The position numbers and the translations under genes were made by a program. A stretch of DNA of 64,000 nt from Patescibacteria group bacterium (lineage in GTDB: Bacteria; Patescibacteriota; Microgenomatia; UBA1400; PJMF01), in the NCBI GenBank assembly GCA_041747555.1, contig JBGTEY010000011.1:118274-182273 (forward strand), given 5' to 3'. Shown here one piece after another: positions 34,489-64,000 of this stretch (the stretch's first letter is position 1; each line of letters opens with the position of its first letter). The notes below the pieces were generated by a model, which was not told the origin of the DNA, did not search any database, and saw only the letters and a list, made by a program, of their open reading frames with translations.

Positions 34489-36879
34489 ATGTCCACGCCG
34501 CATACCCTGATCAAAGACGGCCAGCCCATTCAGTACAACCCTCCGTTTTCTGCGTTTCCTCAGTTTCTTGAGAACCTTGCAGAAAATGATCCCACCAAAC
34601 AAGCCATCGTCTTTGTGCCCATCAAAGGCACAAACATTACGCTCACCAGAGAAGATCTTGCTGACTCCGTAGCCACGCTCGCAGCCACCATGCAAAAAAG
34701 CTGGAATTTAGATGTAAGTGATGCTATCTCATTTTGCCTTCCGAACACCCCAGAGGTGTTACTAATAAATTACGCTGCCTGGAGCCTTGGATTACTGTCC
34801 GTGCCACTCGATAGCACCAGAGATACCACCGAGCGCAAAATTTATAAGCTCCAACAAACCAATGCCCAAGTGCTCGTCACCAGAGACGACAAGAAGTCGC
34901 TCTTTGAAAATGCAGAAATCCAAAATGCTCTGCCCCACCTCAAGATCCTCACCTTCAAAAACTTCACCGACTTCAAAAAACAACTTCTTTCCAAAAAACT
35001 CACTCCAGACTATCCAGAGACCGATTTTTCAGAACCGGCCCTTATTCTCTACACCTCTGGCACGACAGCTCTCCCCAAGGGTGTCGAGCTCACTGTCACC
35101 AGCCTTTTTGCCAACGCTGCTTGCATTAGGGATTGGCTCCAGTTCACCCCAGAGGACCGCTGGCAGGTTCTTTTGCCACTCCACCACATCAACTCAACTA
35201 CTTTTGCCAACACCACCCTCTTGGTTGGTGGGACGATAATCTTAGTTGAACACTACTCCAAGTCTCGGTTTTGGCAGTATTTAGCAGAGACAAACTCGAC
35301 TGGAGCTTCCATCGTACCCACCATTGCTTACGATCTCCTTACAGAACAGCAAACATTTGAAAAACATCAAGCAAAACTCAAGCAAGTTGCGCGGTTTCAG
35401 CTCGGATCGGCCCCTGTACAACCCAGAGTTGTCGAGCAGTTCATGAAACAGTTCAATATTCCGCTCTATCAAGGATATGGCCAGACAGAAACTTCCCTCA
35501 GAAGCACTGGTGTACCCATGGATTTAACCAAAAAAGAGTATGAGCATATCAGGGAACTCAACTCGCTTGGAACAGAAATGTCGCTCGCCAACGTTACCGT
35601 TCTTGACGAAAAAGGCTCTGAGCTCGAGGCAGAAGCAGTCGGTGAAATTTGTGTTCGCGGACCAATTATCATGCGTGGCTACCTCAAGAACATCGACGCC
35701 ACAGAAGAATCTTTCGCTCATGACTGGTTCCATTCTGGCGACACCGGTTACTATCGAGAGCTCTATGACAGAAAATTCTTTTTTCTCAAGGGAAGAAGTA
35801 AGGAAATTATCAAAAAAGGTGGTGTCCTCCTCTCGCCACTCGCCATAGAAAACGCCCTCCTCGCACACTACCCTGACCTTGATCAAGTGTATGTCATTGG
35901 TTTTGACGACGCACGCCTGGGAGAGCGAATTGGGTTCGTCGCAGTGACGAAAGTCCACGACCTAGTCCCCCAAATACTTGAAGATGCTAAAAAAGGCGCT
36001 ATTCCCACGCTCAAACCATATGAATTACCTGATAGTGGTCTCAGGATCACCCCAGAAGTACTCCCCAAAACTGCCACCGGAAAAGTCCAGCGTCTTGAGA
36101 TAAAAAAACAGTTCGGACCGTTACTCTTAGAGGCATTTCGCACCATCGCACTTGCTGATGATGGCACCAGATTCAGATTGATCGGTCCAGAAGAAGAAAA
36201 AGTACTCTCCAAAGCCGCTGAAATCGATGAAAATCGTTGGGGTTCTCACCTTGCTGGCAGTTCCGCATCATTCATGCAAAGAGCACAAAATGGAGCGCTA
36301 ATAGGCGCATTTGATGATCGAAATTCTCTCCTTGGAACCATCTCTGCTGTCCGCCTGGATGAGACTGAATTGCTGGATTCAATTCAACCTGATCACTGGG
36401 CCTCTACTTGGGATGGAATTACTGGCAATGGCACACTCAACACCAATTCGCACAAAGGTGACACACTGGTGCTGGTTGCCGTCGCGGTGGCCTCTGGAAA
36501 AGCAACATCGCCCAGTCCCACCCCACCCAAACCAATTTCAGAAAAACTGCACCAAGAAAGCCTCAAGCACCTCCAAAAGTATGCGAAATCAGGCGAAGAC
36601 CCCGTCCTGGCGTTTCATGGCATGAAAAAAGCTGGAATGCCATCGGGAGCAACGGTTGTTCATAGTCTCCCAAACTCTCGCCCTGCGGATTGGATGGCTC
36701 TTGGTCACAATGTGTTGGTGCAGTATCCCGAGATTTCAAGTGAGCCGGTGATTAGCGTTCCAGCTAGTACCGGCACGCAATTGGTCGAAGCGGCAATCCT
36801 CTATGCATTTCAAAATGGCATCACCAACGTCTATGCCTATTCTCGACCGGCGAAATACCATGATTACCTGACTAAATAA
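34489..36879 (+). CDS. AMP-forming adenylating enzyme (acyl-CoA synthetase-like) fused to ~270-aa C-terminal domain of unknown function
   Basis: ANL-superfamily core motifs YTSGTTALPKG, GYGQTE, FHSGDTGYY, GRSKEIIKKGG, PKTATGKVQR in first ~530 aa; C-terminal region without recognised motif. Confidence 0.8.
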   Translation: MSTPHTLIKDGQPIQYNPPFSAFPQFLENLAENDPTKQAIVFVPIKGTNITLTREDLADSVATLAATMQKSWNLDVSDAISFCLPNTPEVLLINYAAWSLGLLSVPLDSTRDTTERKIYKLQQTNAQVLVTRDDKKSLFENAEIQNALPHLKILTFKNFTDFKKQLLSKKLTPDYPETDFSEPALILYTSGTTALPKGVELTVTSLFANAACIRDWLQFTPEDRWQVLLPLHHINSTTFANTTLLVGGTIILVEHYSKSRFWQYLAETNSTGASIVPTIAYDLLTEQQTFEKHQAKLKQVARFQLGSAPVQPRVVEQFMKQFNIPLYQGYGQTETSLRSTGVPMDLTKKEYEHIRELNSLGTEMSLANVTVLDEKGSELEAEAVGEICVRGPIIMRGYLKNIDATEESFAHDWFHSGDTGYYRELYDRKFFFLKGRSKEIIKKGGVLLSPLAIENALLAHYPDLDQVYVIGFDDARLGERIGFVAVTKVHDLVPQILEDAKKGAIPTLKPYELPDSGLRITPEVLPKTATGKVQRLEIKKQFGPLLLEAFRTIALADDGTRFRLIGPEEEKVLSKAAEIDENRWGSHLAGSSASFMQRAQNGALIGAFDDRNSLLGTISAVRLDETELLDSIQPDHWASTWDGITGNGTLNTNSHKGDTLVLVAVAVASGKATSPSPTPPKPISEKLHQESLKHLQKYAKSGEDPVLAFHGMKKAGMPSGATVVHSLPNSRPADWMALGHNVLVQYPEISSEPVISVPASTGTQLVEAAILYAFQNGITNVYAYSRPAKYHDYLTK

Positions 36880-37602: not shown

Positions 37603-38469
37603 TTATTTTTTAGGCCGCTGTGGGAATACATTTTCTACGGCGGCTTTTAGTACCAACCACCCAAACTCAAGTAATCTCAACTGCCTTCTCCATCTCCAGG
37701 GTTCCTGAATGAGTCGATAGAGCCATTCTAGGTGCATACTTCGCATCCATCGCGGTGCGCGATGCAACTTTCCTAAGAGTACGTCAAAGCTCCCTCCAAC
37801 CACCATTGCGATTCGCACGTTTTGTTTTGTGAGGAACGCGCGGTGTTCTGCAATCCAGCGTTCTTGCCACGGGGCACCAAATGCGACAAACACAATTGCG
37901 GGTTTGTGTGTTGTGATGAGTTTTTGAACTGCGGTTTCTTCTGATTTTTTTGGTTGAGTGATGTCTTCATATCCCGGTGTCCAGTGAATTTGAATCTCTT
38001 TGGCAACATCCTGCCCTGCCTCCTCAAGAAACACGGTAATCTCCCCTGGATCAGATGCGTACCCCTGACCGCCAAGTAGCATCATGGGTAATTTCAGCGA
38101 CTTCCCCATTTGCAATAGCTCAGAAACAACATCTATTCCCGCAAATTTAGTGACAGGAACGAATGTTTCCTCAAGAAGACTTAAGAATTGAAATGCTAGT
38201 GCTGGTCCACTCTCTGCCAGGGCAAGATCTGCAGAACCCAAAACTTTAGCGAAGGTACGATTATGACTTGCTTGAACAAGTTGCTCTGCGTTGGGGGTAA
38301 CCACCATCTGGACCTCTGATGTCCCGATAAGTGAATCATGGAATTCTGTTAGCAGTTGTGCATGTGAACTGCTATATAGTTTTAGACGAGGCAATTTGCC
38401 TGATATAAACGTATTTTTCATATAATTGACCGCTTGCAAGCACTCGAGAGAAAAGCGAAACTCAGCCAA
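37603..38469 (-). CDS. WecB/TagA/CpsF-family glycosyltransferase (GT26)
   Basis: FGAPWQERWI...HLEWLYRLIQEPWRWRRQ conserved GT26 motifs. Confidence 0.8.
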   Translation of the reverse strand: MAEFRFSLECLQAVNYMKNTFISGKLPRLKLYSSSHAQLLTEFHDSLIGTSEVQMVVTPNAEQLVQASHNRTFAKVLGSADLALAESGPALAFQFLSLLEETFVPVTKFAGIDVVSELLQMGKSLKLPMMLLGGQGYASDPGEITVFLEEAGQDVAKEIQIHWTPGYEDITQPKKSEETAVQKLITTHKPAIVFVAFGAPWQERWIAEHRAFLTKQNVRIAMVVGGSFDVLLGKLHRAPRWMRSMHLEWLYRLIQEPWRWRRQLRLLEFGWLVLKAAVENVFPQRPKK

Positions 38470-38857: not shown

Positions 38858-39208
38858 CTAATCAGCTTTTTTTTCGTCAAAAACAGACCATTCACACTCG
38901 CTGAGATGAACTCGACTGTCGTTCTTAAACGGCACCCCTTCTTTCTCAAGTACAGCGCGCTGTGCCTCGGGGCCGCCAAATACATATCCGCCAGCCATTC
39001 TGCCATCGGTGTGTACTACTCTATGGCACGGTACTTGACTAGAATCGTCATTTGTGTGGAGCGCCATGCCAATGACTCTGGGGTGTGTACCGGTCAACAA
39101 CGCCAACGTTTTGTATGTCGTTACTTTGCCTGGAGGCACCTGTGCCACAATCTTAAAAATTGCATCCCTAATTACCGCTATTTTTGCCATACATGTAGTA
39201 TAGTACAC
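38858..39208 (-). CDS. ogt: methylated-DNA--protein-cysteine methyltransferase (single-domain)
   Basis: VPPGKVTTYKTLA...PCHRVV active-site motif. Confidence 0.75.
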   Translation of the reverse strand: MYYTTCMAKIAVIRDAIFKIVAQVPPGKVTTYKTLALLTGTHPRVIGMALHTNDDSSQVPCHRVVHTDGRMAGGYVFGGPEAQRAVLEKEGVPFKNDSRVHLSECEWSVFDEKKAD

Positions 39209-39216
39209 TTATTACA

Positions 39217-40662
39217 ATGACTGAATCTGTATCTAACCTCCGCGAACGCTATCCGGTGTTTCATGTATTGAATCCCACCTGGGAACTCGGTGAAACTGCA
39301 TTAAAAATCACGTGTCACTACCAAACCGGCGAGCACTCCTTCGACCATACCCTTGAGTTTCACGACATTCCTTACGATCGCGTTGCAGAATTACCGCAAT
39401 CCGCGCAAGTATACCTAAGTAGACAGATTGCCCTGGTTGAAGTATTTAATTACTGGAAACTCACCTGCTCGCCAGAGATTCATGCCGCTTGGCATATGAC
39501 AACCGAGGAACAAGGCTGGTGGCACAATCTCCTCGAACACGGCATGGGTGAATATTTTTATCAAAATAACATCGCCTTTAGCAAGCCGGATTTCATCAAA
39601 TTTACTTCAGAAGACGGCACTGCACCAGAGGAAACACAACTTTTTGTAGACCGAGAACAACCGTCATATCTAATTCCCGTTGGTGGTGGCAAAGATTCGT
39701 CCGTCACGCTCGAGCTCCTCGGCAAGTATGCCAGACAAGAAGGCTATCGCTCAGCCACAATTATGGTAAACCCCAGCAAAGCTGCTAAAACCACTGCTGA
39801 GACCAGCCCTGTAGAAACGCACCTCACGATCACCAGAACGCTCGATCCGCTCCTCCTCAAGCTCAACGGCGAAGGCTTTCTCAATGGCCACGTCCCATTC
39901 TCTGCGATGTTGGCAATGCTTGGGTTTACTGCAGCAGTGCTTCATGACTACAACTCCATCCCAATTTCTAACGAGCGCAGCTCAAATGAAGGCAATGTTT
40001 CTTTTCAAAACCGCACTATAAATCACCAATACTCCAAAACCTATGCCTTTGAGACAAGTTTTAGAGATTTCGGGGCAATGGCATTTTCACAAAGTCCTGA
40101 TTACTTTTCTTATCTGAGGCCATTGTACGAGCTGCAAATTGCGCAGCTCTTTGCCACCATGCCGCACTATCATCAACTATTTCTCAGTTGTAACCGCAAC
40201 CAAAAACAAAACACATGGTGTGGCACCTGTCCCAAGTGCCTTTTTACCTATAGCGCGCTCCTTCCCCATCTAGGAGAACCAAAAACCACTGAGATTTTTG
40301 GGACCGCTGTGTTAGAAAATGAGTCACTCTTCCCCCTCGCTCTTGAGCTTGTTGGCCAAGAAGCCTGCAAGCCATTTGAATGCGTTGGAACGCAAGAAGA
40401 ATCAATTGTGGCACTGTATTTATGCCAAGAATGGTTTGAGCAACGATCGCTTCCACTCCCCAAATTACTAAAAGAAATCAGCGTTCACGTCCTGCGCAGT
40501 GAACCGGGATTATTTGAGCGCTCTCAAGCACTGCTCGACTCCTGGAATAATCGCCACCACATACCTGTGGATCTCGAGTCAATTCTAAGAGATGCGCTGT
40601 CTCACATTCCGCAACCGCAACTTACTCAAACTGCAGAACCAATACAAAACCAAGATCAGTAG
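39217..40662 (+). CDS. hypothetical PP-loop-like ATPase-fold protein with C-terminal CxxCxxC cluster
   Basis: PVGGGKDSSVTLELL resembles SGGxDS PP-loop; WCGTCPKCLF Cys cluster; translationally adjacent (20 nt) to murD-like gene. Confidence 0.45.
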   Translation: MTESVSNLRERYPVFHVLNPTWELGETALKITCHYQTGEHSFDHTLEFHDIPYDRVAELPQSAQVYLSRQIALVEVFNYWKLTCSPEIHAAWHMTTEEQGWWHNLLEHGMGEYFYQNNIAFSKPDFIKFTSEDGTAPEETQLFVDREQPSYLIPVGGGKDSSVTLELLGKYARQEGYRSATIMVNPSKAAKTTAETSPVETHLTITRTLDPLLLKLNGEGFLNGHVPFSAMLAMLGFTAAVLHDYNSIPISNERSSNEGNVSFQNRTINHQYSKTYAFETSFRDFGAMAFSQSPDYFSYLRPLYELQIAQLFATMPHYHQLFLSCNRNQKQNTWCGTCPKCLFTYSALLPHLGEPKTTEIFGTAVLENESLFPLALELVGQEACKPFECVGTQEESIVALYLCQEWFEQRSLPLPKLLKEISVHVLRSEPGLFERSQALLDSWNNRHHIPVDLESILRDALSHIPQPQLTQTAEPIQNQDQ

Positions 40663-40681
40663 AAAAATCACATAAGGAAAA

Positions 40682-42181
40682 ATGCTCTCACTCAATCCTT
40701 TACCAGAAGAAGTTGCGCACGCAAAAACAATTGTACTGTTCGGACTAGGGAGAGAGGCGCATTCAACGTATACGTTTTTGAAAAACTATGCGTCTCTGAG
40801 TCAAGTAGGATCAGCCCCTGATTTTTCATTTGTGCTCATGGATGATCAACAACTAGAGCAAATCAGTCCAGTCTGGAAAGAAGTTGCAGATCAGGAAAGT
40901 GTGACATTTGTGGGATCGGTAGTGCCAGACGTTGATCCTGCTTCAACACTACTCTTTGTTTCCCCCGGAATCCCACCCACTCATTCTATTCTTGCACAAT
41001 TACTGCAAAGAAATATTCCACACACTTCCAACACCGATCTCGCACTCAAATTACTTCCCAAAAATGTCCACACCATAGGCATCACCGGCACCAAGGGCAA
41101 AAGCACCACCTCCGCACTCATTCACCACGTGTTGACTGTAGGTAAAACACCCACTTTTTTGGGAGGGAATATTGGCACTGCTCCACTTGACGTGGTCGCA
41201 CAGATTGCACACTCACCAGAGGTTGCACATGAAACATCAGCCGCTACTCTTGCAGCCATCGCAGTCCTTGAGCTCTCAAGCCACCAACTCCGCACCACAA
41301 CGGTGAGTCCACAGATTGCCGTCATTCTTGATATTACGCCAGAGCACCTCGATTATTACCATACATTCGAAGAATACCAGTCGGCCAAGGCAAAAATCGT
41401 CGCCCATCAAACAGCTAACGACATCGTTGTCTTCAATCCTGATCACGAAACCGCTGCAGCAATTGCCGCAACATCTGCAGGTAAAAAGCTCGAATTCACC
41501 ACCCATCCGCCGCTCTCGCCAACCTCTGACGACTATCCTGTTGTTGCGTATTTACATGAAAATAAATTGATGTACGGTTCAGAAACCATTCTAGAAGACA
41601 CCGATCAAATGCAAATTATTGGCAACCACAATAGAGAAAATGCCCTCCCCAGTGTAGTTATTGCTAAAGAATATGGGCTCGAAAATCAGCAAATCGCAAC
41701 AGCGCTTCTAAATTTCACAGGATTACCACATCGCTTGCAGTTCGTAGCAGAAGATCGAGGCGTATGGTACATTAATGACTCACTTTCAACAACTCCAGAG
41801 GCAGCAGTGGCTGCGCTGCAGACATTCAACGATTCTTCTGTTGTTCTCATCGCTGGTGGCCACGATCGTCATCTCGACTTTGGCCCCCTGGCCCGCCAAA
41901 TTCTCGCACAATCGGTCACCGCGCTCATCACCTTCCCTCCGACAGGCGAACAAATCACCCGCGCCCTCTACCAGATGCAGCCAAACAGCCCTCTCCTCCA
42001 AGAGGCAGGTTTCAAGGTCAATTCCATGAGCGAAGCCGTCAGCATTGCCAAAAAAATGGCTCGACCAGGAGACGTTGTGCTCTTGAGTCCGGGAAGTGCG
42101 AGCTTTGGATTATTTGAGGATTATGCAGATCGTGGTGAGCAGTTCGTGAATGCAGTGACAGACCATTCAGACGCCCAATAG
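40682..42181 (+). CDS. murD: UDP-N-acetylmuramoyl-L-alanine--glutamate ligase (MurD family)
   Basis: Mur ligase P-loop GITGTKGKSTTSAL, central and C-terminal Mur ligase domains; AAGGA RBS. Confidence 0.75.
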   Translation: MLSLNPLPEEVAHAKTIVLFGLGREAHSTYTFLKNYASLSQVGSAPDFSFVLMDDQQLEQISPVWKEVADQESVTFVGSVVPDVDPASTLLFVSPGIPPTHSILAQLLQRNIPHTSNTDLALKLLPKNVHTIGITGTKGKSTTSALIHHVLTVGKTPTFLGGNIGTAPLDVVAQIAHSPEVAHETSAATLAAIAVLELSSHQLRTTTVSPQIAVILDITPEHLDYYHTFEEYQSAKAKIVAHQTANDIVVFNPDHETAAAIAATSAGKKLEFTTHPPLSPTSDDYPVVAYLHENKLMYGSETILEDTDQMQIIGNHNRENALPSVVIAKEYGLENQQIATALLNFTGLPHRLQFVAEDRGVWYINDSLSTTPEAAVAALQTFNDSSVVLIAGGHDRHLDFGPLARQILAQSVTALITFPPTGEQITRALYQMQPNSPLLQEAGFKVNSMSEAVSIAKKMARPGDVVLLSPGSASFGLFEDYADRGEQFVNAVTDHSDAQ

Positions 42182-42208: not shown

Positions 42209-42961
42209 TTAGTTTTTTTTCTCAATTGTTGCGGTAATTGCTTTATGATCGCTCACTCCAGCATGTAATTTCACGTCTCGAGCCACAAATCCGTCAGTCA
42301 AAAACAATCCATCTACCATTAAGTTAGCCGTTTTCCCAATTGGATGAATATCAGGATCAAGTGATGTCACATACTCTTGAGGAATATAATCAGTAAATAG
42401 TTCCGCAAATGCAGTAAATACCTTCTCTCCTCTGGGGGCATTAAGATCGCCGCAGAAAATTAATTCATCATACTTCGCAAACACTTTTTTGAGTGATTCA
42501 AGCGCTTCCCATTGCTCTGGATTGTCTTTGCCGTTGGGTGTCCAGACAAAATGCGTCGTTGCGACGGGATATATCACTCCATCAACCTCAATCTGCGCCA
42601 CAAGCAGTTTTCTGACTGGAGAAAGTGGATCTGTAAATTCTGGAACCTCACCATCACTCTCGTCTCCATTTGACTCTCGATGTGGATTTAGATACAAATG
42701 CGAAGTCACTTCCATTGGGTGTGCAGAAAAACAAGCAATTCCCTGCTCGCCAAACAACTGATGGGTGAATCTGTTTTCTTTGGTAAACGTTGTTAGTGAC
42801 GCATACTCACCGTGCATTCCGCCTAGCATTTCAGATACCAACTCCAAATCCATCTTAAAAATTTCTTGAAAACAAACGACATCCGCTGTATTTTTGGTGA
42901 AAAATTCGGCAAGTTTATCAAGATGTCGGCGGCCTTCGATATTGACTGAAATTAGTTTCAT
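42209..42961 (-). CDS. endonuclease/exonuclease/phosphatase (EEP) family protein
   Basis: VVCFQEIF, GDLNAPR, SDHKAI motifs. Confidence 0.7.
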   Translation of the reverse strand: MKLISVNIEGRRHLDKLAEFFTKNTADVVCFQEIFKMDLELVSEMLGGMHGEYASLTTFTKENRFTHQLFGEQGIACFSAHPMEVTSHLYLNPHRESNGDESDGEVPEFTDPLSPVRKLLVAQIEVDGVIYPVATTHFVWTPNGKDNPEQWEALESLKKVFAKYDELIFCGDLNAPRGEKVFTAFAELFTDYIPQEYVTSLDPDIHPIGKTANLMVDGLFLTDGFVARDVKLHAGVSDHKAITATIEKKN

Positions 42962-44004
42962 ATTCCTATACCTCTCCCTTCCTGCGAATACCCCAAGCTC
43001 TCCCTAAATAAATCCAGATGTTCCAGCGCGGTCGAAATCCCATGAATCACCACCAAATCAGAGTGCTCCACCACAGAAACGGGTACACCCAATCGAGCAG
43101 TCGCAAAACTTGTGAAATCAGAAAGCTGAGCCAGACCACCAGACAACAACAGTCCTTTATCAATCACGTCACTCGTTAATTCAGGGGGTAATTTGGACAA
43201 TAACTTAGTGAGTACATTCAAGTAGCGCTCAGCCACAACGGTCACTTCAGGTAGAAAATCACTAGCTTTGACCGCAACTTCTTTTGGGTTGCCGTGTTGC
43301 ACGTCTTGACCAGCTACAAGTGATTGGGCACCTTCACTTCCGGTCACAGAAACAACAGATTTTAGTAATTTACTTGCTTCAGAACGACTGACAACGATAG
43401 CGTGCTCTTTTTTAAGAGAAAATTGTAAGCGTTCTAGTAAATGAATTCCCGCATACTTCGTATCAACAGCGCTCACAATACTCCCTAGAGAAATAACCGC
43501 ACCCTCAACAACTCCTGCTCCCATGTGCAAGAAAAAACTTCCCGAAGCATCTGCAATCGGCACGCCAGAACCAATACTCGCTGCCAAAGGTTGAGAAATC
43601 GTATACACCTCCCCTGCTCCCACGTCGTACATGAGTTGCGTCATGGCTTGGCGGGCAGTTTGGGTACTGAGCGCTGGGACACTGGCCATGATGACAGGAC
43701 TTATCAGGGGTTTTCGCTTTAATTCTCGCTGTAATAATACCTTAAGCAAGGCTAGGCCAATCGTGCTGTCGTACAATTCTCCCGCAACAACTGGATAGTG
43801 AATTGAGATGTGTTCCCCAACGCGACCTTCCATTTCTTCTGCGTCGGTTCCGACTGCAATCACGCGCTGTGTGGTGTTTTCAATGGCAATGCAGGCTGGC
43901 TCATCGACGATCAATCCACCCGCGTCAACCCAAATTCGCACTCGACTAGAACCGAGATCGATTCCGACACGGCGGACTAGTTTGGGAATACTTGGAAATT
44001 TCAT
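42958..44004 (-). CDS. mreB: rod-shape-determining actin homolog MreB
   Basis: GIDLGSSRVRIWV, EPAAASIGSG-like (SQPLAASIGSG), GAGVVEGAVISLG, LLSGGLAQL motifs collinear with MreB; 348 aa. Confidence 0.8.
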   Translation of the reverse strand: MKFPSIPKLVRRVGIDLGSSRVRIWVDAGGLIVDEPACIAIENTTQRVIAVGTDAEEMEGRVGEHISIHYPVVAGELYDSTIGLALLKVLLQRELKRKPLISPVIMASVPALSTQTARQAMTQLMYDVGAGEVYTISQPLAASIGSGVPIADASGSFFLHMGAGVVEGAVISLGSIVSAVDTKYAGIHLLERLQFSLKKEHAIVVSRSEASKLLKSVVSVTGSEGAQSLVAGQDVQHGNPKEVAVKASDFLPEVTVVAERYLNVLTKLLSKLPPELTSDVIDKGLLLSGGLAQLSDFTSFATARLGVPVSVVEHSDLVVIHGISTALEHLDLFRESLGYSQEGRGIGI

Positions 44005-44040: not shown

Positions 44041-45447
44041 ATGCGCAAGCACATCAACAACCTTCTCAGTCGTCGTGGTATGTATACCATATTTGGTGCA
44101 GTTTTTATTATACTTGGCACCTTTGTGGCTATTCAGTATGCTAATGGAAACTTGCGCTTAACCGATGATGGTGTTGTCCAAGGCACCGGGCTTTTGGCAG
44201 CAAATTCATTTCCACCAGGGGCAGAAGTGTTGGTCAATGACAAACTTGTCACTGCTACTGATGACACGATTTATCTCCAGCCAGGTGAATACATCGTTCA
44301 AATTAGAAAAGATGGCTATGCACCCTGGAGCAAGAACTTGCGCGTAGAACAAGAGCTCGTCACTCAAACCAACGCCAAATTATTTCCCTCTGCACCAAGC
44401 CTCTCTCCGCTCACTTTCACCGGTGTGCAGAATTTACACCCTTCTCCAGATGGTCAAAAAGTTGTCTATTACACAGCCAGCGCATCTGCAGAGCGCAAAA
44501 ATGGCTTGTATGTACTTGATCTAAATAGTGGTTCAGCACTGCCATTTCAGCGTGGTCCGAGGCAAATTTCTTTTGATTCATCAATTTTTGATCTAGAGAA
44601 TGCAGATTTTATCTGGTCACCTGATAGTAGTGAACTGATTGTGATGTCAAATGATCGCGAGGTATTACTCAATGTTTCTACCACCAATGATCTCGACACG
44701 TTGTCCGACATCAGCTTTCAGAGACAACAGATTCTCTCGACATGGGAGCAAGAAATGTACATTAGAGAACGCCAATTTTTGAAGGAATTCCCACCTGAAA
44801 TTCTACAAATTGCTACCAGTAGTGCCAAAAATTTATATATCTCCCCAGACAAGAAACGACTACTCTACACTGCGACAGAGGCCGCAACAATTCCTGATAC
44901 CATCGTGCCGCCAATTCCCGCAACCAACACTCAGCCAGAAGAACGAAACCTCGTAGCGGGTGGAATTTATGTCTATGATCGAGAAGAAGATAAGAATTTC
45001 AGAGTAGCAACAGAGGCCGGTGACACCGTATCTGAACTTGCCACAGGCTTAAATCTTGAGGAGAATTTGGCAGAGGGTGCGCGAAAACAATTACTCGCAC
45101 TTGATATTCTTCAGGAACGATCTCCACTTTTGACCGCTAGCCCAAGCGCTTTCACCTCACTTCAAGCTACAGAATCAGCGCAAACTGCGAAAAATTTCAA
45201 TACATACCACAGCTCACTGTATGCAAATACCGTGCAATGGTTCCCAGATTCTAAGCATCTGATTTACTTACAAAACGGAACAATTAAGGTCATGGAGTAC
45301 GATGCATCAAATAAAACCACGATCTACTCTGGACCATTTTTCGATCAATTTGTGTACCCGTGGCCTGATGGAAGCCGGTTGTTAATTAAAACCGCCTTCA
45401 GTCCAGATTCACCGACGAATTTGTATGGAATTGAGCTAGGAGAATAA
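44041..45447 (+). CDS. membrane-anchored PEGA-domain protein with TolB-like beta-propeller repeats
   Basis: N-terminal TM, PPGAEV...GEYIVQIRKDGYAPW (PEGA), repeated SPDG/WSPD motifs. Confidence 0.6.
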   Translation: MRKHINNLLSRRGMYTIFGAVFIILGTFVAIQYANGNLRLTDDGVVQGTGLLAANSFPPGAEVLVNDKLVTATDDTIYLQPGEYIVQIRKDGYAPWSKNLRVEQELVTQTNAKLFPSAPSLSPLTFTGVQNLHPSPDGQKVVYYTASASAERKNGLYVLDLNSGSALPFQRGPRQISFDSSIFDLENADFIWSPDSSELIVMSNDREVLLNVSTTNDLDTLSDISFQRQQILSTWEQEMYIRERQFLKEFPPEILQIATSSAKNLYISPDKKRLLYTATEAATIPDTIVPPIPATNTQPEERNLVAGGIYVYDREEDKNFRVATEAGDTVSELATGLNLEENLAEGARKQLLALDILQERSPLLTASPSAFTSLQATESAQTAKNFNTYHSSLYANTVQWFPDSKHLIYLQNGTIKVMEYDASNKTTIYSGPFFDQFVYPWPDGSRLLIKTAFSPDSPTNLYGIELGE

Positions 45448-59659: not shown

Positions 59660-62600
59660 TTAAGGGGTTGGGGATGGCGAGCTCTGACCCTGATTCAATG
59701 GGGTTGGTACTGGAGACGGCGTAGCTGAACCCCCACTTGAGGGACTTGGTGTTGGAGATGGTTGCGGCGATGCTTCTGGAGATGGGGATGGACTTGGTTC
59801 AACTGATCCGGCGCCTTCAGCACCTTCGCTTGTCTCATCAGTTTCGCCTGCTTCATCTTGATCACCTGCAACTTCACCAGACTCTTCTGGGTCATTGTTT
59901 TCTTCTGGTTGTGGACTCTGACTTGGCTGTGGTGATCCGCCTTCACTCTCGAGAACTTCTACTAAAGCGGCTTCACCACTCGTTGTGAGCACTGCTAACC
60001 AGTTAATTTCAATATCTTGTGCCTGCGCTTGAGTAAGTCTAATGATAAATGATCCAACTTCAACAGATTCTAGGTGGTAACCACCATTGATTGTGCCTCG
60101 AGAACTGAGGTATACAGTTGGGGCGTCCGCATATGCCTTGGCGAAGGTTACTCTCACTTTGGTAGTTCCTGCTGGAATCACCACACTACCTGCTGTATCT
60201 TTATTGACTCGAATACTACCTCTGATGGTGACGTCTGCCAAGAACTCGACACCGCTCTTGAAGACTGCTCGAGTATTAAATACGACCTCTTTGAGGAATG
60301 TCCAGGCAGTGGCTGTTATTGTCGTATGATTATTCAGGTTTGCATTGATTGCCTGGACTTGTGTGTCGATCGCTGCCAATTGAGTCACCGCAAGTTCAGC
60401 TTGTGTTGCCGCATCCTGTGCCAATTGCTGATCAATATTAGATACTCTACCCTGACTATCAAATTGTACTCGATCAGAAAATGTTTTAAATTGTTCATTC
60501 TGCTCTTGCACCGCCCTCACAATCATAGGTGTGACCTTACCGTAATCAACTTTCCAGTGTTCATTTGGATTGTCAAAATAGGCCGTGACCGCGTCTGGGT
60601 ATATTTCATACAACTGTTGAGCAATAAATCCAGTGTGCATTTTGCTTGATCCATCAGCTTTAAAGCTGTAATCCATAACTTGCACCTGGAGCAATTCCTC
60701 AAGACCTTTGCTGCCCATTGAAAAATTTTCCTTTAAACGTAGATCAGAAGAGGTGTTGTATGAAGTCGTACTACTCCCAAACGTGATTGAGCCGACACTT
60801 GTCCCATTGCCATCGTTAAATTGTACGAGTGTTGAGGGGCCTGCAGCTGTATGATCGTCCAATCCAGCTTGAATGGAGATGCCCGATCTATTAGTAGCAT
60901 TCCCATCATTGAAAAATTCTGCAGCATAATCAGTTAAGTTGGCTGAAACTTGAAGTTGACCATTCGTTGCCAAAGTTCCAGAACCCAAAAAGTTAAAATT
61001 TTGATTTAAACTAACATTTCCAAAGTGAAGCGCTTCAGAACCATCGGTTGTCGTAAAGATCATGTACCGACTACCAGATTGAGCAAACTGCAGTGCTGCG
61101 GATTGATTATCTGGAAATCTGATTGTTGTTGCTGAATTTAAATTTATATCACTACCACCTACAACCAAGTCATTCACACGTACATCGCTCTCAAAATATC
61201 CTCCATAATCCCAGTTTGCGCCCTCTTGGTAAATTGCATATTGCGTGCCTGAGACCCCGTTGGTGTCTGTGGCTGGATCATTAATGCGAATTCCATATAG
61301 AGAGTTACCAGTTGATGCAGTGAAATTTGTAAAATCAAGATCAATCAATGTGGTGCTTCCCGTAGAAGTTGTCCCTGTCCCCCAATCTACATTTATAAGC
61401 TCACCAGACGTCCAGCTGGTATTAAGTGCATAATCGGTAAATGTACCAATTGTCCCTGGCGTAATTGTTGTTAACCCTGATAAGGTCAATGTTGTGGAAT
61501 CAACCCCAGCATTTGCATCTAGATTTCCTGTAAATGTCACCTGACCTGATCCTGCTTGTGTAAGTGCTCCAGTGTTAGTGAATGTGAAAAATGGAGTGCC
61601 GTTGTCGGCAATGATGAAGTCGCCTGTGGTTGTGAGATTATATGTTAATCCTGTAGCATTATCGATTTCCATGGTTAAATTAGCCTCAGTGATTGATTGT
61701 GCATACACATCATCAAATGTGGGTGTGCCCGCTACAGTATCTACATACGCTTTAATGCTCTGCTGTGTGGCAAGGGCTGTAGCAGAGTTTGAGACGAGGT
61801 CGTCTTCATCGAGAATTGAACTGACGGCTGTTGAGGCTCCGAGTTGAAGTGAGCCATTGACGAGCAATGCTCCATTTGAGAATGAGAGTAGGTCAGTGTC
61901 TGTGGTAAGCCCAAGAGTCGTGCCATCCAAAAGCAAACTATCTACTGTCCAGCTCGTAAAACCAGTTCCCACACCAGAAGCGTTAATATCCCAACCAGAA
62001 GAGTTTATTGCAATTGCATCTCCGCCATCTCCCAGAGTTACCGTGCCATTTGCGACCAGTGAGCCATTTGCTGTAAGCGTGCTAGCAAAAGTACCCGCAC
62101 CAGCCGTGGTAATTGTTGCATTTCCACCCACGGTGAGTGATGATCCTGTGACATCGAGGCCGCTTGTTACATCCACATTGCCGGTGAGGGTTACTTGACC
62201 AGCTCCAGCTTGAGTAAGTGCTCCAGTGTCAGTGAATGTGAAAAATGGCGTGCCGTTATCTGCAATGATGAAGTCGCCGGTTGTTGTTAGGTCAAAGGTC
62301 AACCCACCCGCATTATCAATTTCCATGTTGAGATCAGCTTCAGTAATAGATTCGGCATACACTTGATCAAATGTTGGAGTTGAGGTGCTTATTTGATTAT
62401 CAACATAGGCCTTTATGCTCTGCTGTGTCGCCAACGCTGTTGCTGAATTTGAAGTGAAGCTATCTTCATCAAGAATTGAACTAACCGTTCCTCCAGAAGT
62501 AAGAGTGAGCGTGGAAGCAGTAATATCTCCTTCAACCGATAAGTTAGCTTGGTATGTTGAATTTGAATTAATAATGGTGTACGTACTATCCGCACCAGCA

Positions 62601-64000
62601 TCAAGCAGGTTCCAATAGACAGAGTTGTCTCCAGAAATCGCGCCAGAGCTCACAATTTCGAGGCGATCATCGGTGCTCTCATCATAAAGGACACTCCAGT
62701 TTGCATCATTTCCAAAAGCAAATCCTACGTTATCCTGCACTTCCCAAGCTCCAGAAATAGCCTGTGCATCTGAGTCAAAAATTAACGCCTCTATTGTATT
62801 CTCGGTCGTCGCATCTGTAGATGCTAAACCGTTTAATGCTCCTCCTGTAAGCGAAGTAGTGCCGTCAGTGAGGGTACCGCCAGTGATGATACTTGAAGCG
62901 TTCAGGGTTGTTACGTCAGAAATTGCTCCTGCATTTATATCAATTCCGTTGATCGTTTCATCTGTATGAGCGGTAATTACACCGCCAGTTGAAAATGAGT
63001 AACTCCCGCCAACAGTCAAGTTTGCATTGGTAACATCAAGTCCATTGCTCGCATCTACATTGCCTGAGAGCGTTACCTGACCTGCTCCTGCCTGCGTGAG
63101 TGCGCCACCATCGGTGAAGGTAAAGAAGGTAGTGCCGTTGTCGGCAATGACGAAATCACCAGTGCTGGTCAAGTCTACAACCAGGTTGCCAGTTAGTGCA
63201 TTAGTTATTGTCGTTGCTGCGTCAAGTGTTAGGGCATCTGCGAGTTCAGTAAAATTCAAAGAGTCTGCAATGACATTGTAGGTAAGTGTGTCAGTTGCAG
63301 AAACGGTTGCGTTAATAGTTGATGAATCTGCGGCGCTGAGAGTATTGGTTGAGCTGATAGTTTGTGAGGTGACGCCGTCAGAAATTACCCAGTTTGAATA
63401 TCCGCCGGCTCCAGCATCAGCATCAATCCATGCTAAGACTCCAGCCGAGTTTGTAGATAAAATTTGATTTGCGCTCCCATCGGCAACGGGAAGTGTATAA
63501 ATAACGTCTCCTGCGAGTGTATCTGGAGCTTTAAATCCAGTATAGTTGTCTCCCCCAGCCTCAAGCTCCTGGAAACGAATTTCACCAGTATTACCAGCGG
63601 CAATACCAAATGGATTAATGTTAAATGCTGACGCAGACACGTCAAAGTAAAATGGTGAGTCGCTCGTGGTATTACCAACAGCAAGGTCGTCTGAGGTGGC
63701 AGTTAAGTAGGTAATTGCACCATTATCTGTCCATTTTGAAGAACCAGAACCACCAGAAGTTACCCAGCCGCAAGTTGGTTGTGTAGGATCACAGAGGAGA
63801 TCGTTACCCCAATACAAACTATCGCCCGCTTCTCCTGCTGCAGCTGCGCCATACGAAAGTACATTGTCTGGATCTGCGTCATTGTTGAGACCAAGGGTGG
63901 TGCCTTGCACCGCAACTGCCCCCGAGAATGTAGTGAGCGCTGCATTAATATCGATATCATCGCTGGCAAAATCGATGCTTGGATCCGTTACTCCGACATC
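59660..64000 (-). CDS. giant repetitive surface/fibre protein with Peptidase-S74-like intramolecular chaperone domain; 5' end beyond window
   Basis: >1440 aa; Thr/Gly/Asn-rich beta-rich repeats (three copies of TTTGDFIIADNGTPFFTFT...QAGAGQVTLTGNVD), SDLRLKENF...GFIAQQLYEIYPDAV S74-type motif, Pro/Ser/Glu-rich C-terminal tail; frame remains open to nt 64000. Confidence 0.7.
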   Translation of the reverse strand, partial: DVGVTDPSIDFASDDIDINAALTTFSGAVAVQGTTLGLNNDADPDNVLSYGAAAAGEAGDSLYWGNDLLCDPTQPTCGWVTSGGSGSSKWTDNGAITYLTATSDDLAVGNTTSDSPFYFDVSASAFNINPFGIAAGNTGEIRFQELEAGGDNYTGFKAPDTLAGDVIYTLPVADGSANQILSTNSAGVLAWIDADAGAGGYSNWVISDGVTSQTISSTNTLSAADSSTINATVSATDTLTYNVIADSLNFTELADALTLDAATTITNALTGNLVVDLTSTGDFVIADNGTTFFTFTDGGALTQAGAGQVTLSGNVDASNGLDVTNANLTVGGSYSFSTGGVITAHTDETINGIDINAGAISDVTTLNASSIITGGTLTDGTTSLTGGALNGLASTDATTENTIEALIFDSDAQAISGAWEVQDNVGFAFGNDANWSVLYDESTDDRLEIVSSGAISGDNSVYWNLLDAGADSTYTIINSNSTYQANLSVEGDITASTLTLTSGGTVSSILDEDSFTSNSATALATQQSIKAYVDNQISTSTPTFDQVYAESITEADLNMEIDNAGGLTFDLTTTGDFIIADNGTPFFTFTDTGALTQAGAGQVTLTGNVDVTSGLDVTGSSLTVGGNATITTAGAGTFASTLTANGSLVANGTVTLGDGGDAIAINSSGWDINASGVGTGFTSWTVDSLLLDGTTLGLTTDTDLLSFSNGALLVNGSLQLGASTAVSSILDEDDLVSNSATALATQQSIKAYVDTVAGTPTFDDVYAQSITEANLTMEIDNATGLTYNLTTTGDFIIADNGTPFFTFTNTGALTQAGSGQVTFTGNLDANAGVDSTTLTLSGLTTITPGTIGTFTDYALNTSWTSGELINVDWGTGTTSTGSTTLIDLDFTNFTASTGNSLYGIRINDPATDTNGVSGTQYAIYQEGANWDYGGYFESDVRVNDLVVGGSDINLNSATTIRFPDNQSAALQFAQSGSRYMIFTTTDGSEALHFGNVSLNQNFNFLGSGTLATNGQLQVSANLTDYAAEFFNDGNATNRSGISIQAGLDDHTAAGPSTLVQFNDGNGTSVGSITFGSSTTSYNTSSDLRLKENFSMGSKGLEELLQVQVMDYSFKADGSSKMHTGFIAQQLYEIYPDAVTAYFDNPNEHWKVDYGKVTPMIVRAVQEQNEQFKTFSDRVQFDSQGRVSNIDQQLAQDAATQAELAVTQLAAIDTQVQAINANLNNHTTITATAWTFLKEVVFNTRAVFKSGVEFLADVTIRGSIRVNKDTAGSVVIPAGTTKVRVTFAKAYADAPTVYLSSRGTINGGYHLESVEVGSFIIRLTQAQAQDIEINWLAVLTTSGEAALVEVLESEGGSPQPSQSPQPEENNDPEESGEVAGDQDEAGETDETSEGAEGAGSVEPSPSPSPEASPQPSPTPSPSSGGSATPSPVPTPLNQGQSSPSPTP

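Follow-up and report, generated by a model that had tools for sequence, protein, structure and literature searches.

A candidate murL-murD2 gene pair for D-glutamate in the peptidoglycan of a Patescibacteria group bacterium

The ligase MurD2 and the epimerase MurL form a known route that places D-glutamate (D-Glu) in the peptidoglycan stem peptide (Feng et al. 2017, cited here from reviews). According to these reviews, MurL (XOO_1319) turns the ligase product into its D-Glu form in one direction only, it needs ATP and Mg2+ and yields AMP, and its discoverers proposed adenylation of the alpha-carboxylate. MurD2 and MurL orthologues of the distant actinobacteria Micromonospora and Salinispora showed the same activities in vitro (review). 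Two reviews describe MurL as a protein that "lacks known conserved domains" (one of them PMC8788868), and a 2021 review places MurD2/MurL in relatively few genera. Here we analyse a stretch of 64,000 nucleotides (nt) from contig JBGTEY010000011.1 of a Patescibacteria group bacterium, which we call the window. Two adjacent genes in it are very probably a fresh example of the MurD2/MurL system, in a lineage absent from the reviews. The open reading frames (ORFs) and the spacer between them are located as follows.

39217 to 40662, forward strand: ORF A, murL candidate, ATG start, 481 amino acids (aa)
40663 to 40681, forward strand: intergenic spacer of 19 nt with an AAGGA Shine-Dalgarno-like site
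40682 to 42181, forward strand: ORF B, MurD-type ligase, ATG start, 499 aa

Judged by sequence, ORF A is homologous over its full length to MurL, an epimerase that has been characterised elsewhere. Its single NCBIfam match was NF041275 (MurL_Xanthmoales, UDP-N-acetyl-alpha-D-muramoyl-L-alanyl-L-glutamate epimerase; E=5.5e-68, 229.5 bits), which aligned over the full length of the protein (residues 31 to 457 against model positions 26 to 443 of 447). BLASTP against the PGAP-annotated MurL of Xanthomonas sacchari revealed 33% identity over 398 residues (E=2e-54), with all motifs in common. Similarity to MurL, which a preliminary description of this DNA had posed as a matter for BLAST and profile searches, was thus borne out by both. 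ORF A had no match among the Pfam models scanned, which did not include those of MurL. The protein database contained more than 6,700 homologues, and 120 of 120 among those listed carried PF26298 and PF26299 in the precomputed annotation (MurL_epimerase_C and MurL_N, respectively, names taken from neighbourhood look-ups). The nearest homologue (74% identity), from a Microgenomates-group metagenome-assembled genome (MAG), has identical synteny and both Pfam families and is labelled "hypothetical protein". Pfam families for MurL already exist, and JGI gives a few homologues their correct name.

The preliminary description had drawn attention to a 481-aa protein with a GGGKDS motif and a Cys cluster, 5' of a Mur ligase, and we found all of these in the ORF listing and at the motif positions below.

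39682 to 39699, forward strand: PP-loop variant GGGKDS, residues 156 to 161, between strand 150-154 and helix 159-175
40189 to 40239, forward strand: four-Cys cluster C325-x9-C335-x2-C338-x2-C341 (SCNRN...WCGTCPKC), a predicted structural Zn site of QueC/QatC type
40216 to 40239, forward strand: WCGTCPKC, residues 334 to 341, Cys cluster
40381 to 40383, forward strand: Cys389 in the invariant KPFECVG of the C-terminal domain, conserved in X. sacchari MurL too

Conservation was scored in 117 homologues. Besides X. sacchari, these comprised 76 genome loci spread over many phyla and 40 proteins from the database. Residues G157, G158, D160 and S161 were kept in 116 to 117 of these sequences, and P386 and C389 in all 117. 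The four cysteines C325, C335, C338 and C341 were likewise present in 117/117, a count that is partly circular because the 76 genome loci had been retrieved by a DNA pattern for WCxxCxKCL; the 40 homologues from the database and the Xanthomonas protein confirm WCxxCxKCL independently, and for the remaining motifs the 76 loci count as independent too. The first residue of the PP-loop was Gly in 114 sequences and Ser in 3, against the consensus SGGxDS. At least 30 invariant positions are kept in ORF A. Among the invariant or nearly invariant residues that it has, besides those of the PP-loop, the cysteines and P386, are G224, H225, P227, E253, H270, Q271, K274, R301, E305, S324, N326, W334 and K340. 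Since such residues are (nearly) invariant in homologues from many phyla, GGGKDS and the Cys motifs cannot be put down to chance.

We then consider the ligase. In MurD2, Glu197, Arg358, Pro433 and Phe435 replace Asp182, Lys348, Ala414 and Leu416 of Escherichia coli MurD; an E197D/R358K double mutant of MurD2 switches to D-Glu, and K319T lets E. coli MurD accept L-Glu (PMC8788868). ORF B matched Mur_ligase_M and Mur_ligase_C of Pfam and, weakly, MurD-like_N, and its best NCBIfam match was TIGR01087 (murD; 339.8 bits, cut-off 211.95). Alignment to the MurD structures of E. coli and S. agalactiae placed its residues as follows.

41078 to 41107, forward strand: ATP-binding P-loop GITGTKGKST, residues 133 to 142, aligned to GSNGKST of E. 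coli MurD
41342 to 41344, forward strand: Glu221 (TPEH), aligned with E. coli MurD Asp182 and X. oryzae MurD2 Glu197
41783 to 41785, forward strand: Leu368 (NDSLSTT), aligned with E. coli MurD Lys319
41867 to 41869, forward strand: Arg396 (GGHDRH), aligned with E. coli MurD Lys348 and X. oryzae MurD2 Arg358

Ala473 and Phe475 of the window ligase occupy the positions of E. coli Ala414 and Leu416, and X. sacchari MurD2 reads E/I/R/P/F at the five positions (182, 319, 348, 414 and 416). For comparison, we used 13 canonical MurDs encoded beside mraY/ftsW-type genes, 75 MurL-adjacent ligases including that of the window, and the 120 nearest database homologues.

E. coli Lys319 position: canonical, Lys 13/13; MurL-adjacent, Ile/Leu/Phe 75/75; nearest 120, Leu, Gln, Ile or Met, never Lys
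E. coli Lys348 position: canonical, Lys 10 and Arg 3; MurL-adjacent, Arg 75/75; nearest 120, Arg 86 and Lys 34
E. coli Asp182 position: canonical, Asp 10 and Thr/Ala 3, never Glu; MurL-adjacent, Glu 50, Asp 24 and Gly 1; nearest 120, Glu 120/120

With X. sacchari added, the Lys319 equivalent was absent from all 76 MurL-linked ligases and present in all 13 canonical MurDs. In this sample, its loss is an empirical hallmark that parts MurL-linked from canonical ligases. MurL-linked ligases do not all have Glu at position 182, since 24 of the 75 have Asp. The signature residues of ORF B suggest a MurD2-type ligase. Two variants of the signature were also seen. MurL-linked ligases of Acidimicrobiia (loci L010, L012, L014, L020, L023, L026 and others) combine Asp at the 182 position with Arg348 and no Lys319, and 34 of the 120 nearest ligase homologues (P0121-P0240) combine Gln at the Lys319 position with Lys at the Lys348 position, a variant Patescibacteria signature.

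Phylogeny placed the ligase on the same side. In a neighbour-joining tree of 66 sequences, the canonical MurDs were split from the rest in 154 of 200 bootstraps, and the window ligase lay inside the MurL-linked group of the candidate phyla radiation (CPR)/Patescibacteria in 199 of 200. The choice between a MurD and a MurD2 affiliation, left to phylogeny in the preliminary description, therefore fell, with moderate support, to the MurL-linked side, apart from the 13 canonical MurDs of dcw clusters.

The two genes are also linked well beyond the window. In X. sacchari (a PLSDB "plasmid" record that is actually a piece of chromosome), murL lies directly upstream of "murD" with a 20-nt overlap. 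Across 120 genome loci, both genes were found within 8 kb in 80, and murL was 5' of the ligase on the same strand in 67 of these 80; the order is reversed in Geodermatophilus-type loci. Single-ORF MurL-MurD fusions of 890 to 990 aa were observed in MAGs of several Bacteroidales and Bacillota (L033, L046, L081, L092 and L115), and a search of 1.84 billion cluster representatives revealed many fusions of 880 to 1090 aa in both orders (P0243, P0244, P0257, P0270, P0320 and others). Gene fusions are classical evidence of functional coupling, and the MurL-MurD fusions point to such coupling here. Three Patescibacteria relatives (74%, 43% and 41% identity) keep the neighbourhood in the same order as the window: HTH_17, WecG glycosyltransferase, (Ogt-like), MurL, Mur ligase, (EEP nuclease), MreB and PEGA. 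The preliminary description had made the persistence of the upstream gene in relatives a telling point, and the same order of the pair is found in these three, in Xanthomonas and in the 67 loci. The conserved neighbours in the window are listed below.

37603 to 38469, reverse strand: WecG/TagA-family glycosyltransferase, a neighbour conserved in the Patescibacteria relatives
42958 to 44004, reverse strand: MreB, conserved neighbour downstream of the pair
44041 to 45447: PEGA-domain gene, which with MreB makes up a cell-envelope neighbourhood

Within the pair, the spacer reads TAG-aaaaatcacataaggaaaa-ATG, with the AAGGA ribosome-binding-like site 6 nt 5' of the ligase ATG; it measures 19 nt, not the 20 nt first given. 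A consensus scan of the spacer found neither a promoter-like nor a terminator-like site, which argues for co-transcription of murL and the ligase, and ORF A and ORF B are read most simply as a single transcript. On the other side of murL, a short Ogt-like ORF (38858 to 39208, reverse strand, 101 to 116 aa, with a DNA_binding_1 domain and a PCHR motif) runs divergently. Its start lies 8 to 26 nt from the murL start codon in the window as well as in the relative with 74% identity, and the divergent starts leave hardly any space for two promoters. As to public records, the ligase is present at 100% identity, whereas the assembly collection has no entry for the exact 481-aa MurL product; in the public annotation of the source genome, murL was probably called with a different start or missed.

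The family extends to 2,293 clusters at 50% identity (E<=1e-3). Carriers of murL-murD pairs belong to many phyla, with cultured gut commensals among them, and include Faecalibacterium prausnitzii (L100), Ruminococcus flavefaciens (L088), Pseudobutyrivibrio ruminis (L102), Geodermatophilus obscurus DSM 43161 (L004), Mycolicibacterium (L019/L105), Nanosyncoccaceae (L017), Parcubacteria (L025) and Devosiaceae (L031). Judging from these homologues, the murL family is far more widespread than the "few genera" of the 2021 review. A MurL-like gene that scores 323 bits against NF041275 stands alone on the Pseudonocardia alni plasmid pPaSha1 (locus L145:3695-5095). On mobilizable Pseudonocardia plasmids (also hits H33 and H34), no Mur ligase lies near the MurL-like gene, which has ParA-like, HTH and WD40 genes around it and may represent a paralogue that serves a different function.

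On the basis of these results, it is highly likely that ORF A and ORF B are co-transcribed as a murL-murD2 unit, which supplies the D-Glu of the stem peptide without free D-Glu. The ligase would add L-Glu to the cell-wall precursor, and MurL would then flip it to the D-form with ATP. A genome that relies on this route would be expected to have neither murI nor a D-amino-acid aminotransferase. No murI was detected in the 64-kb window, either in Pfam scans of its 48 ORFs or with a five-sequence MurI hidden Markov model and tblastn in six frames (best E=2.6). The Pfam scans of the 48 ORFs also found no D-amino-acid aminotransferase, and the window holds no second Mur ligase. The guess of a MurL/MurD2-type pair in the preliminary description is upheld by the MurL homology, the MurD2 signature residues and the conserved linkage, and each point on which it could be tested came out in its favour. 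Such a pair would explain how a reduced cell of the Patescibacteria type builds normal D-Glu peptidoglycan from L-Glu alone, and it would correct two annotations, "hypothetical protein" and "D-glutamate ligase".

What fold might carry out this reaction? An AlphaFold2 model of the MurL homologue, built on a 20-sequence alignment, reached a mean pLDDT (predicted local distance difference test) of 92.6 and a pTM (predicted template modelling score) of 0.90. In it, an N-terminal domain (residues ~1-130) is followed by a QueC-like PP-loop core (~148-345) and then by a helical domain at the C-terminus (~346-465), and the final ~10-20 residues are disordered. The order of strand 150-154, GGGKDS, helix 159-175 and strand 178-184 is that with which a Rossmann-like core for nucleotide binding begins (beta1/PP-loop/alpha1). 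The best fold matches of the model were QueC and Cap9; Foldseek by itself gave weak matches. The MurL family profile matched sequences of the PDB at the PP-loop only (TtuA, with SGGKDS, at E=3e-4, then MnmA and GMP synthase), and sequence searches of the PDB with the MurL homologue returned no QueC match. From the model, the MurL core is predicted to have a QueC-like PP-loop ATP pyrophosphatase fold with a Cys4 site that probably holds structural Zn. GGGKDS is the predicted binding loop for the alpha- and beta-phosphates of ATP, and the Cys4 the predicted counterpart of the structural Zn site of QueC and QatC.

In PP-loop enzymes, ATP AMPylates a first substrate with release of pyrophosphate (PPi), and attack on the intermediate then frees AMP; QueC and Cap9 AMPylate a carboxylate, which in Cap9 is that of CDG, later attacked by a protein N-terminus (PMC13376578). 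QueC and QatC have a four-Cys zinc site in common, which is thought to be structural (PMC13376578, the 2026 QatC structure paper). A QueC-like PP-loop reading of MurL fits its reported ATP-to-AMP stoichiometry and the proposed adenylation of the alpha-carboxylate, and the preliminary description had given the enzyme as ATP-dependent, correctly according to the reviews. By homology to characterised MurL, the upstream protein would bind ATP at GGGKDS, and its PP-loop core would adenylate the terminal L-Glu at its alpha-carboxylate with release of PPi, while the four cysteines would bind structural Zn. Inversion would then occur on the activated intermediate, and water, as the "second substrate", would free AMP and thereby render epimerisation one-way. 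As a speculation, Cys389 could serve in epimerisation as the catalytic acid/base, in proton transfer or as a thioester nucleophile. Such a fold would provide a structural rationale for the unusual ATP-to-AMP requirement of MurL. In the searchable literature, we found no paper that joins MurL to QueC, to the PP-loop family or to CPR.

Several points weigh against a murL-murD2 unit. For the window genes and their Patescibacteria homologues, the MurL and ligase functions are predicted from sequence, and the adenylation site, the binding of Zn and the role of Cys389 are read from a predicted model. The score of ORF A against NF041275 is well under the equivalog cut-off of 700 bits, so that orthology rests on conserved residues and synteny and not on a curated threshold; the cut-off was tuned to Xanthomonadales, and X. 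sacchari MurL scores 836.5 bits and other Patescibacteria homologues 233 to 239. The ligase passes TIGR01087, an equivalog for "UDP-MurNAc-L-Ala--D-glutamate ligase". X. sacchari MurD2 (L122:6136-7572) passes it as well (298 bits), so TIGR01087 cannot separate the two types and carries little weight, and MurD2-type ligases are systematically named D-Glu ligases in public records. At E. coli position 414, the window ligase shares the Ala of E. coli MurD, whereas Xanthomonas MurD2 has Pro there; exchanging that Pro for Ala (P433A) left the specificity of MurD2 unchanged (PMC8788868). Support for the split between canonical and MurD2 ligases is 77% and comes from neighbour joining alone, which is distance-based. 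A first neighbour-joining tree, without close relatives, had put the window ligase beside the canonical clade, a placement that we treat as long-branch attraction and that was gone once 24 close relatives were added.

Of the other explanations, the one that survives best, although we consider it improbable, is that the MurL homologue uses PP-loop adenylation for a different outcome. It might amidate the Glu alpha-carboxylate to iso-glutamine, like QueC or MurT/GatD, or epimerise another residue, with the ligase adding whichever Glu isomer is available. The nearest solved folds, QueC and Cap9, do form an amide bond from the carboxylate that they AMPylate and do not epimerise, but no glutaminase or ammonia-donor gene lies beside the pair. 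The 33% identity to Xanthomonas MurL, under the equivalog cut-off, leaves room for another activity; however, all family-invariant residues are shared with Xanthomonas MurL (by NF041275, an equivalog of the X. oryzae enzyme). The ligase-less genes of the Pseudonocardia plasmids suggest that the family may not be monofunctional, whereas close linkage to a ligase that bears the L-Glu signature, or fusion with it, is exactly the MurD2/MurL arrangement, and the Micromonospora and Salinispora orthologues have the MurD2/MurL activities in vitro.

Is the ligase instead an ordinary D-Glu-adding MurD, with an unrelated PP-loop neighbour whose adjacency is coincidental or regulatory? We regard this as very improbable. 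The linkage holds across phyla and includes fusions, Lys319 is replaced as in 76/76 MurL-linked and 0/13 canonical ligases, and Glu at 182 never occurs among the 13 canonical MurDs. The TIGR01087 score, the naming of homologues as D-glutamate ligases in public records and the occurrence of Arg at the Lys348 position in canonical Firmicute MurDs would favour an ordinary MurD, but Xanthomonas MurD2 passes TIGR01087 too. Finally, a QueC-like defence or nucleobase-modification enzyme (QatC/Cap9/QueC type) is barely credible for the upstream protein, for although its best fold matches are QueC and Cap9 and its layout (N-terminal region, PP-loop at ~residue 156, C-terminal Cys4) resembles that described for QatC (PMC13376578), its MurL homology is strong and specific, no PADLOC defence model matched at E<=1, no PDB sequence match to QueC was found, and no QatA/B/D, CD-NTase or queuosine genes lie nearby. 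The QatC/Cap9 defence reading was rejected on the PADLOC null and the cell-envelope neighbourhood.

Returning to the murL-murD2 reading, we tentatively extend it to a joint proposal of three parts, which taken together we rate at slightly less than an even chance. First, the bypass would be a major, perhaps dominant, D-Glu route well beyond Xanthomonadales and a few other genera, present in Patescibacteria, many Bacillota, Bacteroidota, Acidimicrobiia and Acidobacteriota, including F. prausnitzii and R. flavefaciens; automatic annotation would have hidden it by naming the ligase a D-Glu ligase and MurL a hypothetical protein. Second, MurL would be a QueC-like PP-loop adenylator with structural Zn, in which the invariant Cys (C389) carries out the stereo-inversion. 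Third, loss of the Lys equivalent to K319 would serve as an easy sequence marker for telling MurDs that add L-Glu from those that add D-Glu. MurD2/MurL has been put forward as a target for narrow-spectrum antibiotics, confined to a few genera rich in pathogens (PMC8788868). The broad spread of the genes, linked or fused, including in common gut commensals, bears on that proposal.

Two further ORFs of the window were noted. One (34489 to 36879, forward strand), ~2 kb 5' of the cell-envelope cluster, encodes a 796-aa AMP-binding enzyme (acyl/aryl-CoA-ligase-like) whose C-terminal ~260 aa have no family match. The other (59660 to 63910, reverse strand) encodes 1416 aa, with Peptidase_S74 at residues 1055-1109 (an endosialidase/tail-fibre-type intramolecular chaperone) as its sole Pfam match; for a small genome this is a large protein, perhaps of the cell surface or resembling a phage tail fibre.

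How does the pair compare with known systems? Like Xanthomonas MurL, the window protein has GGGKDS, NGHxP, SNExS, NHQxSK, SCN, WCGxCPKC and KPFECVG, is of similar length (481 versus 451 aa) and is encoded directly 5' of a MurD2-type ligase on the same strand. It differs in being 33% identical, in scoring 229 bits against the 700-bit cut-off and in having a short disordered C-terminal tail. Its host belongs to Patescibacteria (Microgenomates-like) and is neither a proteobacterium nor an actinobacterium. The window ligase shares with X. oryzae MurD2 the three-domain MurD-type architecture, Glu and Arg at E197 and R358, Phe at F435, a hydrophobic residue for Lys319 and a gene outside the dcw cluster, beside murL. 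Unlike Xanthomonas MurD2, it has Ala at P433 and longer insertions (499 aa) and clusters with Patescibacteria ligases. With canonical MurDs (E. coli b0088 and others of dcw clusters), it shares the fold, the motifs for binding ATP and UDP-MurNAc-L-Ala, ~29% identity to the E. coli enzyme and a pass of TIGR01087. These canonical ligases, however, have Lys319 in 13/13, Asp, Thr or Ala at 182 and mostly Lys348, and are encoded between mraY and ftsW/spoVE/murG, none of which applies to the window gene.

The window protein has four invariant cysteines with QueC-like spacing, a candidate Zn site. QueC, Cap9 and QatC have no detected sequence similarity to MurL outside the PP-loop, and MurL has additional N- and C-terminal domains compared with them. 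The substrate to be AMPylated by MurL would be UDP-muramyl dipeptide, with inversion and hydrolysis as the outcome, whereas QueC-type reactions end in amide or nitrile formation. The glutamate racemase MurI serves the same end, the D-Glu of the stem peptide, but it has an unrelated fold, is cofactor-independent and reversible, and acts on free glutamate.

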